A DNA stretch of 64,000 nt from Escherichia coli (GTDB taxonomy: Bacteria > Pseudomonadota > Gammaproteobacteria > Enterobacterales > Enterobacteriaceae), in assembly GCF_041886205.1 (NCBI RefSeq), contig NZ_CP169029.1, one strand, 5' to 3'. The translations under genes and the position numbers were made by a program. The notes beneath the pieces are model-generated. The model was given only the letters and a program-made list of their open reading frames with translations, made no database searches and was not told the DNA's origin. Positions 35,884-44,541 of this stretch are shown here, one piece after another (within the stretch, counting starts at the first letter, position 1; each line of letters begins with the position of its first letter).

Positions 35884-36940
35884 GGCTTTGTTGAATAAAT
35901 CGAACTTTTGCTGAGTTGAAGGATCAGATCACGTATCTTCCCGACAACGCAGACCGTTCCGTGGCAAAGCAAAAGTTCAAAATCACCAACTGGCCCACCT
36001 ACAATAAAGCCCTCATCAACCGTGGCTCCATAACTTTCTGGCTGGATGATGAAGCTATTCAGGCCTGGTATGAGTCAGCAACACCTTCTTCACGAGGCAG
36101 ACCTCAGCGCTATTCTGACCTTGCCATCACGACTGTGCTGGTCATTAAACGCGTATTCAGGCTGACCCTGCGCGCTGCGCAGGGCTTTATTGATTCCATT
36201 TTTTCTCTGATGAACGTTCCGCTACGCTGCCCGGATTACAGCTGTGTCAGCAGGCGGGCAAAGTCGGTTAATGTCAGTTTCAAAACGCCCACCCGGGGTG
36301 AAATCGCACACCTGGTAATTGATTCCACCGGGCTGAAGGTCTTCGGTGAAGGCGAGTGGAAAGTCAAAAAGCATGGCCAGGAACGCCGCCGTATCTGGCG
36401 TAAGCTGCATCTCGCCGTTGACAGTAAAACACATGAAATCATCTGCGCTGACCTGTCGCTGAACAACGTTACGGACTCAGAGGCCTTCCCCGGGTTAATC
36501 CGGCAAACCCACCGGAAAATCAGGTCAGCCGCCGCCGATGGCGCTTACGATACCCGGCTATGTCACGATGAACTGCGGCGTAAGAAAATCAGCGCGCTTA
36601 TCCCTCCCCGAAAAGGTGCGGGTTACTGGCCCGGTGAATATGCAGACCGTAACCGTGCAGTGGCTAATCAGCGAATGACCGGGAGTAATGCGCGGTGGAA
36701 ATGGACAACAGATTACAACCGTCGCTCGATAGCGGAAACGGCGATGTACCGGGTAAAACAGCTGTTCGGGGGTTCACTGACGCTGCGTGACTACGATGGT
36801 CAGGTTGCAGAGGCTATGGCCCTGGTACGAGCGCTGAACAAAATGACGAAAGCAGGTATGCCTGAAAGCGTGCGTATTGCCTGAAAACACAACCCGCTAC
36901 GGGGGAGACTTACCCGAAATCTGATTTATTCAACAAAGCC
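35884..36940 (+). mobile_element. IS903-like (IS5-family) insertion sequence, 1,057 bp, 18-bp terminal inverted repeats GGCTTTGTTGAATAAATC, 9-bp target duplication TTTTACAGG (35875-35883 and 36941-36949)
   Basis: IRs and duplication read directly; the left-end sequence matches the IS903 end as I remember it from Tn903-derived vectors. Confidence 0.85.
35961..36884 (+). CDS. IS903-type DDE transposase (about 307 aa from GTG 35961; the open frame starts at TTG 35916)
   Basis: IS4/IS5-family Y-2-R-3-E-6-K signature (YNRRSIAETAMYRVK) and DGAYD motif present; exact start uncertain. Confidence 0.8.
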   Translation: MAKQKFKITNWPTYNKALINRGSITFWLDDEAIQAWYESATPSSRGRPQRYSDLAITTVLVIKRVFRLTLRAAQGFIDSIFSLMNVPLRCPDYSCVSRRAKSVNVSFKTPTRGEIAHLVIDSTGLKVFGEGEWKVKKHGQERRRIWRKLHLAVDSKTHEIICADLSLNNVTDSEAFPGLIRQTHRKIRSAAADGAYDTRLCHDELRRKKISALIPPRKGAGYWPGEYADRNRAVANQRMTGSNARWKWTTDYNRRSIAETAMYRVKQLFGGSLTLRDYDGQVAEAMALVRALNKMTKAGMPESVRIA

Positions 36941-39399: not shown

Positions 39400-40024
39400 C
39401 TAAAGTTGGATGCTTAAGAAATGCTTCATAATTCAGTAAGGCATTAGCATAATGGGAATAAAAGTGCAGAGACCATTCCTATGGTTCTAATACTGCCTTT
39501 TTATTGCCGCCCATAGATGTTCAGTACACCAATACTATAAAATTGATATTGAAATGTACTCCCTTGCTTATTGATACATTATTTTATACGGTTAGTTTGC
39601 TTTTAAAAACAACGGGCGTGCTATACGCCTGTTTCATGGCTTAACCCATATTAATTTTGCTTTATTTTTCATCGCGTTATAAGTTTTTAACCAGCAACGA
39701 GTTATCCTTTACTATAAAGTTCAATAGTTGAGACCTTACCCTCATGTCATGCGTATATTCATTATAATGCTCCTTAGACAAAAAAAGCCAACCATGATGG
39801 TTGGCAAAGTGGCACAAAGTAGCATAAAGGCTATGCTTTAATTACAGAAGGTTCAGTCATTTAAATGTATATCGTTTTATCTAAACAGAACTAAAACGAA
39901 GTGAATGATTTCACTTTTCCACTAAATCTCATTTTGTTTAATCTCTGTTGAGATTCCTTGCTTTAAATTTTGTTTTATAAAACAGTAGCTTTATTTTTTA
40001 ATTGATTTTTAGGTAATATAAAAA

Positions 40025-40279
40025 ATGCAAAATCAAGAAATGAATATCCAAATTAAACTATACGCTTATTTAAATAAATATGACACTCGCCTTACAGAAG
40101 AAAAAATTGCGATTGATAAAGCTATTAGAGAATTACATTTTAGCAGCGAGCATGTTGATAACAAAAAAATAATACTGAAGTTACTTTCATTTTTATCATA
40201 TACAGATGATGTTGTTGAAAAAGACATTATCAGAAATACATTGGAAGTGGTTCTTCTTTTTACTTCCGATGATATTTAA
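40025..40279 (+). CDS. AriR/YmgB-family small protein, 84 aa (paralog of ariR)
   Basis: C-terminal half aligns by eye with AriR (NKKIILKLLSFLSYTDDVVEKDIIRNTLEVVLLFTSDDI versus [39 protein letters not shown]); AT-rich surroundings. Confidence 0.6.
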   Translation: MQNQEMNIQIKLYAYLNKYDTRLTEEKIAIDKAIRELHFSSEHVDNKKIILKLLSFLSYTDDVVEKDIIRNTLEVVLLFTSDDI

Positions 40280-40522
40280 TTGGATTCACTAACTTTATTA
40301 TCAAAATTATTGTCCGAACACTACCTTTCTTACTTATGTTTAATAATAATCACTGCGAATGAGGGGCGCACAACTATATTTTTCTCACACCTGTGATGTA
40401 AAAACACGAGAAAATCCAAATAAAGAACAACATTTGCAATTCCCACCAGATGGATTGCATCACACTTTATTATTCAAAATATTTATCAGCATCATTAAAA
40501 GCCGAAGGATAAGACAAAACAA

Positions 40523-40846
40523 ATGAAGTGGATAGTAATTGACACGGTAATTCAACCTACATGTGGTATATCTTTTTCAGCCATATGGGGTGATATGAAA
40601 ATGATCATCTGGTATCAATCTACTATATTTCTCCCTCCTGGTAGTATATTTAAACCGGTTAAATCTGGTATTATCCTTAAAGATAAAGAATATCCTATTA
40701 CTATTTATAACATCGCACCATTCAACAAGGATTTATGGAGTCTACTCAAAAGCAATCAAGAGTGTCCTCCAGGAGAAAGCAAAATAACAAATAAATGTTT
40801 GCATAATAGTTGCATTATAAAAATATGCCCATATGGGCTCAAGTAA
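40523..40846 (+). CDS. iraM: Anti-adaptor protein IraM (stabilises RpoS under Mg starvation), 107 aa
   Basis: Translation recognised ([23 protein letters not shown]...). Confidence 0.85.
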
Positions 40847-40897
40847 AGGGTTTAATATAAATATGCTCGATATGCTATTAATAATACCTACATAAAT

Positions 40898-40925
40898 AAA
40901 ACAACGGGCGTGTTATACGCCCGTT
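40898..40925. terminator. Hairpin (AACGGGCGT-GTTAT-ACGCCCGTT) between convergent iraM and icd; a near-identical copy lies at 39605-39633
   Basis: Perfect 9-bp stem read directly; A-rich upstream, weak T-tract. Confidence 0.45.
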
Positions 40926-40948
40926 GCAATATTAAACACATGTAGTGA

Positions 40949-42199
40949 TTACATGTTCTTGATGATCGCATCACCAAATTCTGAACATTTCAGCAGTTTA
41001 GCGCCTTCCATCAGACGTTCGAAGTCATAGGTTACGGTCTTGGCGTTGATTGCGCCTTCCATACCTTTAACAATCAGGTCTGCGGCTTCAATCCAGCCCA
41101 TGTGGCGCAGCATCATCTCAGCAGAGAGGATGATAGAGCCAGGGTTTACTTTGTCCTGACCGGCATATTTCGGCGCAGTACCGTGGGTGGCTTCAAACAG
41201 GGCGCATTCGTCACCGATGTTTGCGCCAGGGGCGATACCAATACCACCAACCTGCGCTGCCAGGGCGTCAGAAATGTAGTCACCGTTCAGGTTCATACAG
41301 GCGATAACATCATATTCAGCCGGACGCAGCAGGATCTGTTGCAGGAACGCATCAGCGATCACGTCTTTAATGACGATCTCTTTGCCGGTATTCGGGTTTT
41401 TAACTTTCAGCCACGGGCCGCCGTCGATCAGTTCTCCGCCAAACTCTTCACGCGCCAGCTGGTAGCCCCAGTCTTTAAACGCGCCTTCGGTGAACTTCAT
41501 GATGTTGCCTTTGTGCACCAGGGTCACAGAGTCACGATCGTTAGCAATTGCGTATTCGATCGCTGCACGAACCAGACGTTTGGTGCCTTCTTCCGAACAC
41601 GGCTTAATACCGATACCGCAATGTTCCGGGAAGCGAATTTTCTTCACGCCCATCTCTTCACGCAGGAATTTAATCACTTTCTCGGCGTCGGCAGAGTCAG
41701 CTTTCCATTCGATACCCGCATAAATGTCTTCCGAGTTTTCACGGAAGATAACCATATCGGTCAGTTCAGGGTGTTTAACCGGGCTTGGAGTGCCCTGATA
41801 GTAACGTACCGGACGCAGGCAGATGTAGAGATCCAGTTCCTGACGCAGGGCAACGTTGAGAGAACGAATACCGCCACCAACCGGAGTGGTCAGCGGGCCT
41901 TTAATGGCAACGCGATATTCACGAATCAGATCAAGGGTTTCAGCAGGCAGCCAGACATCCTGACCATAAACCTGTGTGGATTTTTCACCGGTGTAAATTT
42001 CCATCCAGGAGATTTTACGCTCGCCTTTATAGGCTTTCTCGACTGCAGCGTCGACCACTTTCAGCATGGCTGGGGTTACATCTACACCGATTCCATCACC
42101 TTCAATGTAAGGGATAATCGGATTTTCAGGAACGTTGAGTTTGCCGTTTTGCAGGGTGATCTTCTTGCCTTGTGCCGGAACAACTACTTTACTTTCCAT
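40949..42199 (-). CDS. icd: NADP-dependent isocitrate dehydrogenase, 416 aa, full length
   Basis: Translation recognised throughout ([38 protein letters not shown]...). Confidence 0.97.
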
Positions 42200-42369
42200 T
42201 CACCTCTCCTTCGAGCGCTACTGGTTTGCTCGTCTGCCACCACGTTGCATATGCGTTTGCGTCCTGCGATACGGATGCTTTAGAGCAATTTTTGTTAATG
42301 ATTTGTAATTGGCTTGTCAATACTACCCTATTGTTTGCCGTCATGAAAGATGCGCGTTATTAGGCTATA

Positions 42370-42420
42370 ATGCGGCAATTCATAATCTGTGAAAATACCA
42401 TGCAAAAAACTTCTTTTAGA
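42370..42420 (+). pseudogene. rluE: Displaced 5' end of rluE (first 17 codons, MRQFIICENTMQKTSFR) separated from the rest of the gene by a 1.5-kb insertion
   Basis: In-frame continuity with the downstream rluE body across an 11-bp direct repeat; -10-like TATAAT at 42366-42371. Confidence 0.5.
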
Positions 42421-42659
42421 CCAAAGACAGTATTTTTCAGACCTTCAAATAAGGTATTAAATATCAATAATTTACACCAGATTTTAAGCAATAAAAAAAA
42501 CCACCAGAGATAACTAACAGGGTGCTATTTGGTCAAAATTTGACATTACTCGATTCAGCGACTAACTCACTTTGAGCACTATTGGGAAAATTATCAAAAG
42601 TCATGGTTGAAGCGACAAGCAACGAGTAAATTATGGCATCCACCCTTTTTGAGGTTCAC

Positions 42660-42752
42660 ATGAAACGCTTTGCACTGATAGCTGTGACACTCGTTGCCTT
42701 TACTGGTTCTAGTTCTGCATCTGCTGCAACCGAAGAAATCAACTTCAAGTAA
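42660..42752 (+). CDS. Micro-ORF, 30 aa, signal-peptide-like (MKRFALIAVTLVAFTGSSSASAATEEINFK); possibly a decayed N-terminus
   Basis: SD GAGG 5 nt upstream; same frame as the next gene but separated by two stop codons. Confidence 0.25.
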   Translation: MKRFALIAVTLVAFTGSSSASAATEEINFK

Positions 42753-42785
42753 CAGAAACACTATATAACAATGAAGTGTTGAAAA

Positions 42786-43235
42786 ATGGATACTACCGAA
42801 GAACGCAATGGAACATATTTCTACAGAGGACACCCGAACCTGTCCAAAATAGAACTACTCAACGTCATATTCCTTGAAGAATTCTGTAAGGAATTGGGGA
42901 TTGATTCGGTATCAGGTGCAGCAATCTTATCTGGTCAACCTTGGCTGGGTACAAGAGCGAAGCCGCAAGGGGCAACCCTGGGAACAAGTGTTGTCTCAAA
43001 GTATGCGCGTATACTGATGAGAGATGCACGCATGCCTTTTGGTATTTCTGTTCATACACCAGTGGGGGTAAGGATGCAGAAATCTAATAAGCTTGCTGCA
43101 ATTATCGCTCGTTGGGTCCCGTGGATTGGTTGGGCTTCACTGTCGATGAGTCTTTACAGGGTTTCGACTCGTACCCAGGAAAAATACAATCTGATTGCCA
43201 AACCTCAAGACCGTATTAAGTGGACTTCCTTCTAA
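42786..43235 (+). CDS. Hypothetical protein, 149 aa (gene A of inserted cassette); unrecognised family
   Basis: ORF track; AT-richer than flanking core; stop overlaps start of next gene (TAATG). Confidence 0.6.
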   Translation: MDTTEERNGTYFYRGHPNLSKIELLNVIFLEEFCKELGIDSVSGAAILSGQPWLGTRAKPQGATLGTSVVSKYARILMRDARMPFGISVHTPVGVRMQKSNKLAAIIARWVPWIGWASLSMSLYRVSTRTQEKYNLIAKPQDRIKWTSF

Positions 43236-43570
43236 TGGCGACAACAATCACAGACGAAGTTTTAGCACTGTTCCGTGATGAGATTCCAGGTTATCAGGAT
43301 GACCACGGGAAGGAAATTCCGTTAGAACTGGACTCTGATTTGTTCGACTATCCACGAGATGATATAGAGGACGCTATACGGAAATACAAAGAGAGGTTTG
43401 GGATTAACCTGGATAATCTGGACTGGTCTTTGTACCTTCCGTGGGAGTCTGCACCATTGCTTCAACGATGGTTCAAGCTCAAGCGGGAAGAGGTAGAAAC
43501 AACACGTTTACCGTTAACTGTACGGATGTTTGCAGAATCAGCAGAAGCGGGAAAATGGCTGTATCAGTAG
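43235..43570 (+). CDS. Hypothetical acidic protein, 111 aa (gene B of inserted cassette), translationally coupled to gene A
   Basis: ATG overlaps gene A stop (TAATG); track ORF starts at upstream GTG 43220; hairpin terminator-like sequence immediately downstream (about 43575-43600). Confidence 0.6.
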   Translation: MATTITDEVLALFRDEIPGYQDDHGKEIPLELDSDLFDYPRDDIEDAIRKYKERFGINLDNLDWSLYLPWESAPLLQRWFKLKREEVETTRLPLTVRMFAESAEAGKWLYQ

Positions 43571-43902
43571 AATAAAAAAGAAGGCTGCGATGCCCTTCTT
43601 ATTACTGCTGATGATGGTAGTGGTAAAGCATCATCCTGAACTTGAACAGTGAAGTGCTGTCACCCATCAGTAATACAGAAACACTATTTTTCATACCAGT
43701 ATTTATTCAATTCATCAATGTAAAATGTGTTCATTGGGCCATATTTATCACCATGCAGCCACACAACCGCTGCTCACTAACCCAGGTATTGATGAAACCG
43801 CGCTGAAGAGCCTGAACCCTGAACCTCTAATGAGTACCTTCAAAGTCCAATGCAATCCGACACTGTGCTACCCTCTGCGTATAGCTCTATTTGGAATTTA
43901 CT

Positions 43903-44541
43903 ATGAAATACTTTAGCGATTCTAAATCTTCTTTTAGAAAAAAACAGGTTAGTCGACTAAACTCGCAACACTCCACTAAGCGTAAACCTGAAAACCAGCC
44001 CACGCGGGTGATCCTGTTCAATAAACCCTACGATGTTCTTCCGCAGTTCACCGATGAAGCCGGACGCAAAACATTAAAAGAATTCATCCCGGTTCAGGGC
44101 GTTTATGCAGCAGGTCGTCTTGACCGCGATAGCGAAGGGTTACTGGTGCTGACCAATAACGGCGCGTTGCAGGCGCGTTTAACCCAGCCGGGTAAACGCA
44201 CCGGAAAAATCTATTATGTGCAGGTGGAAGGTATTCCCACACAAGACGCACTTGAAGCCTTGCGCAATGGCGTAACCTTAAATGATGGCCCTACCCTGCC
44301 CGCAGGCGCGGAGCTGGTTGACGAACCCGCGTGGTTATGGCCGCGGAATCCACCAATTCGTGAACGCAAAAGTATTCCCACCAGCTGGCTAAAGATCACC
44401 TTATATGAAGGACGTAATCGCCAGGTGCGCCGCATGACCGCCCATGTTGGTTTCCCCACGCTGCGACTGATTCGCTATGCGATGGGTGATTACTCTTTGG
44501 ATAATCTTGCCAATGGCGAATGGCGAGAAGCGACAGATTAA
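43903..44541 (+). CDS. rluE: 23S rRNA pseudouridine(2457) synthase RluE with a substituted N-terminus (212 aa from ATG 43903; alternative TTG 43891)
   Basis: Body of the protein recognised ([27 protein letters not shown]...[17 protein letters not shown]); N-terminal 13 residues come from insert DNA. Confidence 0.75.

Follow-up and report, generated by a model that had tools for sequence, protein, structure and literature searches.

An unoccupied e14 and phage 21 attachment site at the 3' end of icd in Escherichia coli

The attB of e14 and that of phage 21 reportedly lie in E. coli icd, as Hill, Gray & Brody (1989) and Wang et al. (1997) are said to have found. Phages that use this site bear, beside int/xis, a copy of the final 165 nt of icd and of its terminator. 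In the proposed mechanism, a tyrosine integrase would cross over at the left edge of the phage-borne icd copy; after integration the phage copy would complete icd, and the native end would persist as a pseudogene fragment on the distal side of the prophage. The use of icd by prophages is well known, and the attP carries replacement sequence (PMC10111431, PMC6379469, PMC12803456). We found the icd 3' end in 28 Escherichia phage records, including phage 21, ev017, 4A7, Perceval and 1H12, and in the three phages inspected (phage 21, ev017 and 1H12) the icd unit adjoins int/xis. Occupied examples were found with an e14-like prophage (MB06102) and with a phage 21-like prophage (SCU-485).

In the K-12 MG1655 record, e14 is annotated at 1196209..1211412 and icd (b1136) overlaps its first 165 nt. 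The icdC pseudogene (b4519, 165 nt) lies just beyond the far end of e14 and is followed by iraM, which in K-12 is thus the host gene after icdC. The earlier note on this DNA had described e14 in K-12 as lying at the 3' end of icd and supplying a replacement end; the K-12 annotation and our alignment agree, with the displaced native end present as icdC at the far side.

We compared these systems with the icd locus of a 64-kb stretch of E. coli DNA (64,000 nucleotides), referred to below as the window, in which the gene order is umuDC ... minCDE ... bluF-bluR-ycgX-iraM, icd, rluE-nudJ-mnmA-purB-phoPQ ... lolCDE. The window very probably holds, inside the 3' end of icd, an unoccupied attB for e14, phage 21 and related lambdoid phages, with an icd end of the host type. 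In terms of the mechanism outlined above, integration here would either never have happened or have been cleanly reversed. The features of the locus are as follows.

40949..42199, minus strand: icd, NADP-dependent isocitrate dehydrogenase; 416 codons plus TAA, uninterrupted (ORF list; RefSeq annotation of E. coli wlxctx60).
40901..40927, minus strand: icd intrinsic terminator hairpin with an 11-bp stem and a 5-nt loop (terminator scan).
40896..41113, minus strand: attB homology unit of 218 nt, made up of 165 nt of coding sequence (codons 363-416 and the stop), a 21-nt spacer in the 3' UTR and the terminator (aligned to K-12 attL/attR and to attP of phage 21, ev017 and 1H12).
41103..41113, minus strand: left-boundary 11-mer ATGCTGCGCCA, the probable crossover (core) segment; identical to K-12 attL and attR.
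40847..40895, no strand assigned: host flank from the terminator to iraM; its sequence is that of the flanks in K-12 attR and in E. coli B.
40523..40846, plus strand: iraM (anti-adaptor), convergent with icd (ORF; K-12 and wlxctx60 annotations).

The 416-codon icd ORF aligns end to end with K-12 icd as a full-length gene with one continuous 3' end. Its TAA stop lies at 40951..40949 and, as the earlier note had observed, the gene runs straight into a hairpin, here placed at 40927..40901 and separated from the stop by a 21-nt spacer. The predicted RNA fold of the terminator has a minimum free energy of -27.3 kcal/mol (z = -5.0 vs shuffles); TTTTATTTAT follows directly after the hairpin, and the T-rich tail reaches approximately 40891. 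Because the T-run sits on the icd strand, the hairpin belongs to icd and not to iraM: it is icd's own intrinsic terminator and no iraM element, which corrects the former description of it as an iraM-side structure. The stop codons of the two convergent genes are 102 nt apart. The region 40874..40944 (minus strand) also gave a sub-threshold match to the Rfam tpke11 sRNA family (26.4 bits, where the gathering score is 43; E = 0.016); the match probably reflects mere terminator resemblance, and the tpke11 identity was set aside. In the borrowed terminator of phage 1H12 (at about 2690..2712), the loop and inner stem are in inverted orientation compared with every other copy, with GCGTGTTATACGC in place of GCGTATAACACGC, a hairpin flip.

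Relative to K-12 icd, the gene carries 39 nucleotide differences, which result in T370I, D398E and E414K in the protein. E398 and K414 also occur in other host alleles and in phage alleles; K414 (codon 414, 40958..40960) is common to E. coli B-type host and phage 21-family alleles and is absent from K-12, which has E414. I370 (C-to-T at 41091, codon 370) is private to the lineage of the window among the sampled alleles. On the other side of the gene, an insert of ~1.5 kb between icd and rluE (42421..43924; 36-46% GC) is absent from K-12 and contains two overlapping genes, one for an STM2901-family protein (42786..43235, no Pfam match) and one for a DUF1493 protein (43220..43570).

The relationship of the window to the occupied K-12 locus is defined by two alignment blocks, one between window positions 40898..42420 and K-12 icd/attL and the other between 40494..41113 and K-12 icdC/iraM. 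The blocks are collinear and overlap exactly on the duplicated unit; therefore, the window is the K-12 locus with e14 precisely removed. The 5' part of icd, iraM, ycgX, bluR and bluF are collinear with K-12 MG1655 icd::e14 (attL = icd b1136; attR = icdC b4519) at 94-96% identity, but in K-12 15.2 kb of e14 lies between two copies of the unit, whereas the window has a single copy and is free of e14 DNA. The coding part of the attB unit spans 165 nt (40949..41113), and the unit (165 nt plus terminator) was found once in the window, with no displaced fragment. The earlier note had given the site as 40949-41110; the location stands, but 3 nt are missing from this span on the 5' side and the terminator part is left out.

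Downstream of the icd stop, the window tracks K-12 attR, with the host terminator and flank, and not attL, where the e14 terminator and the GTTATCAAAA arm repeats are found; this is the outcome of the alignment of the icd end with K-12 icd and icdC that had been proposed as a check. The flank following the hairpin is identical or near-identical to that of K-12 attR, E. coli B, RM10042 and S1. Compared with the e14-supplied K-12 copy, the window unit has 15 coding and 18 downstream differences, and its terminator and flank are of the host type. The 15-kb interior of e14 (K-12 1196374..1211412) had no match in all 64 kb by blastn and tblastx; likewise, neither int or xis similarity nor any e14 gene was detected in the 64 kb by these two methods, in agreement with the earlier note's remark that integrase and phage genes are missing. 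When the phage 21 int/xis region was compared with the 64 kb, matches were confined to the 3' unit of icd and to a second terminator copy, described below. The arm repeats of e14 (GTTATCAAAA) and phage 21 (TTCCCCAAAA) are absent from the whole window. The window thus contains neither intE/xisE with other e14 genes nor an e14-type icd end with a distal icdC, the features of an e14 carrier, and the central claim of the earlier note, that the e14 site at the icd 3' end is unoccupied, holds: the locus is K-12 minus e14, with the unit present once, a host flank, and no e14 match in 64 kb.

The window covers only 64 kb of the source genome, and e14 might reside elsewhere in it, for example after a rearrangement or through integration at a secondary site. 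Genome-wide absence was therefore read from a near-twin, the closest complete genome, that of E. coli wlxctx60 (NZ_AP045833.1), which was isolated from the faeces of an Asiatic black bear in Japan and is 99.90-99.99% identical to the window over 41 kb. With megablast, one unit copy was found in wlxctx60 and one in strain 6EVA, and the same query scored two copies in K-12 derivatives; therefore, an e14-supplied copy is detectable with this query. Because the unit is part of the attP of every e14 or phage 21-type element and wlxctx60 has one copy, this genome is free of e14 and phage 21-like elements throughout. The finding of e14 genes next to an icd fragment elsewhere, which would have spoken against the earlier reading, was sought in wlxctx60 and did not occur, there being exactly one unit copy. 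In addition, only 9% of complete E. coli genomes have e14-type int/xis, and of the 504 records that match, 283 show >=99% identity to those of K-12. Residence of e14 outside the window is thus extremely improbable, and the statement that the strain lacks e14 stands, directly for the window and, for the rest of the genome, through the near-twin. A 234-nt query holding the unit matched only 2 of 5426 genomes at >=99% identity.

The sole large difference between the window and wlxctx60 is a 1057-bp IS903-type element (35884..36940) inserted in bluF, which encodes the blue-light antirepressor. Inverted repeats GGCTTTGTTGAATAAATC form its termini, 9 bp of target sequence (TTTTACAGG) are duplicated, and an ORF at 35916..36884 encodes a DDE transposase; the element is absent from wlxctx60, in which bluF is intact.

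Homology between the window and the phage-borne copies begins at 41113/41112 (or 41107) and ends at 40896. The unoccupied allele of strain S1 matches K-12 attR at every one of the 218 nt, and the first position at which K-12 attL differs from this allele is unit position 12. The e14 crossover would therefore fall within unit positions 1-11, that is, in ATGCTGCGCCA (window 41113..41103). A previous placement at unit positions 13-23, which read position 12 as a host-specific C, was dropped when this position proved polymorphic in four more unoccupied host alleles. The last 10 nt of ATGCTGCGCCA are identical in phage 21 and ev017 attP, and the 10 nt to its left in the window are identical to K-12 attL. 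We infer that the site is available for integration by phages with a core matching ATGCTGCGCCA; the 'free target' of the earlier note would be apt in this sense, because the window agrees with K-12 attL throughout ATGCTGCGCCA and the 10 nt to its left, and its core is identical to that of e14 and phage 21.

The boundary 11-mer occurs in three types: CTG in the window, K-12, S1, phage 21 and ev017; TTA in E. coli B, RM10042 and 1H12; and TTG in strain 2824. These variants are synonymous (Leu codon CTG, TTA or TTG) and are found alike in unoccupied host sites and in phage 21-like attP. Comparison of the host and phage sequences suggests matched core types. If the integrase overlap covers the variant bases, e14, phage 21 and ev017 would find a matching target in the window, and 1H12-type phages would not. 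The T370I change at 41091, 12 nt to the right of ATGCTGCGCCA, could lie in an integrase core-binding site.

Compared with the attB of E. coli B or e14-cured K-12, the window has the same gene, position (codon 363 onward), terminator and host flank to iraM. The left-boundary 11-mer is listed as the same as that of the known e14/phage 21 attB; at the level of alleles the window is of the CTG type and E. coli B of the TTA type. The window and the site of E. coli B C2566 have 4 nt differences over the 218-nt unit and share an identical flank. The distinctions from the known attB are allele details only: C instead of T at unit position 12, T370I at 41091, and K414 vs E414 of K-12. Phage 21-like (Jouyvirus) prophages at icd, such as those in SCU-485 and NC-SV in NC101 (PMC12803456), use the same attB, and their attP units are 92-96% identical to the unit of the window. 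In such lysogens icd is followed by TTCCCCAAAA arm repeats and then by int and xis, whereas the window is without all three.

The source of the icd 3' end in the window was assessed by comparing its unit with host and phage copies. It shows 5 coding and no downstream differences from the host fragment displaced in the e14-like lysogen MB06102, 4 differences in all from unoccupied E. coli B and RM10042, 7-13 coding and 2-6 downstream differences from phage 21-family copies, and 12 coding and 4 downstream differences from K-12 icdC. Because the differences from the displaced fragment of MB06102 and from unoccupied E. coli B and RM10042 are few, the window unit appears to be a common host-type allele. 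Measured against the native K-12 copy, divergence in the unit exceeds that in the rest of icd by a factor of 3.3 (12/165, 7.3%, vs 24/1086, 2.2%; Fisher p = 0.0013). Phage traffic is said to shuffle the 3' segment of icd (Wang, Whittam & Selander, 1997), and the elevated divergence agrees with this long-standing view.

The same divergence could be read as the mark of a site that was once occupied, by a phage 21-like or e14-like prophage that was later lost through Int/Xis excision or RecA recombination between the 218-nt copies, leaving a 3' end that is wholly or partly a phage scar. The window allele is nearer to some phage 21-family copies (7-8 coding differences from SCU-485 attL, ev017 and p21_EC38) than to K-12 icdC (12), and it joins a CTG-type core to an otherwise E. 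coli B-type unit, a combination present in 0 of the 4 other sampled unoccupied alleles; moreover, e14 excision with recombination between icd and icdC has been documented (bioRxiv 10.64898/2026.06.14.732165). However, near-identical alleles exist as a host-derived displaced fragment (MB06102) and in unoccupied E. coli B and RM10042, and a phage origin is therefore unneeded, while the capture of a host allele by phages is equally possible. Precise excision is traceless, and the present unoccupied state is the same either way. We regard a phage scar as unlikely and favor the host-type allele.

A second copy of the icd terminator region, in the same orientation, lies at 39606..39649 (44 nt, 80% identity with 40898..40941). 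The two copies share a 28-mer with 2 mismatches, for which 0 matches are expected by chance. This orphan copy is 1.29 kb beyond the real icd terminator and has no same-strand gene upstream. The segment between the copies has 30% GC vs 48% for the window and carries iraM and an AriR/YmgB paralog. The latter is an intact 84-aa ORF at 40025..40279 (plus strand), between ycgX and iraM, with a full-length match to the YmgB/AriR family (PF10798, 57 bits); window positions 40057..40494 have no K-12 counterpart, K-12 annotating only tiny ymgK and ymgL nearby, and in wlxctx60 an extra A in a homopolymer run (~40163) frameshifts the ORF.

Such geometry is what attL...attR would leave, and the empty site may itself sit on an older, decayed insertion, with the 1.29-kb AT-rich iraM segment as the remnant of an ancient icd-integrated element and 39606..39649 as the displaced original icd terminator. 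The paired terminators, the lack of a same-strand gene upstream of the second one and the low GC content between them all point in this direction, as does the adjoining ycgX, a DUF1398 gene of a family known from prophages. Yet no icd coding remnant was detected beside the second copy (local alignment score 11 vs a shuffle mean of 11.5), int, xis and arm repeats are all absent, and a terminator duplication may arise otherwise. The arrangement is also present in K-12, which makes it old and unrelated to e14. On balance, an ancient insertion is improbable. We consider it quite doubtful, further, that the 30%-GC segment with iraM and the AriR/YmgB gene is a domesticated old icd-integrated element, in which case the PhoP-regulated IraM would have entered E. 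coli via the same attachment site.

Across complete E. coli genomes, icd and iraM are contiguous in 3013 of 5426 (55.5%), and the icd unit occurs 7350 times in 5424 genomes. e14-type intE/xisE is found in 503 of the 5426 genomes and phage 21-type int/xis in 1679. The absence of e14 is thus the rule, and phage 21-like phages use the icd site more often. A scan of outgroups with an exact 26-mer recovered six loci: five occupied sites, in E. albertii, E. whittamii, Escherichia sp. E1V33, C. braakii and one E. coli, and one contig binned as a Sutterella MAG, which ends at the icd stop. The occupied sites outside E. coli are in type or representative genomes: E. albertii NBRC 107761 has a phage 21-type arm and Citrobacter braakii ATCC 51113 an e14-type arm, while a third type of arm, TTAGCACGTCAATAGTTATCAAAAC, is present in E. 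whittamii and in Escherichia sp. E1V33.

Thus, the window contains an unoccupied copy of a textbook attachment site, an already known and ordinary state in over half of sequenced E. coli. For the strain, which is closely related to an isolate from a wild bear in Japan and has the common e14-free and phage 21-free icd, this matters little: its icd is no phage chimera of the K-12 kind, and the site would be open to lysogeny by the icd-targeting lambdoid phages that occupy it in ~40% of sequenced E. coli. Where the last 165 nt of icd enter MLST or phylogenetic analyses, phage-mediated replacement of this segment should be allowed for.
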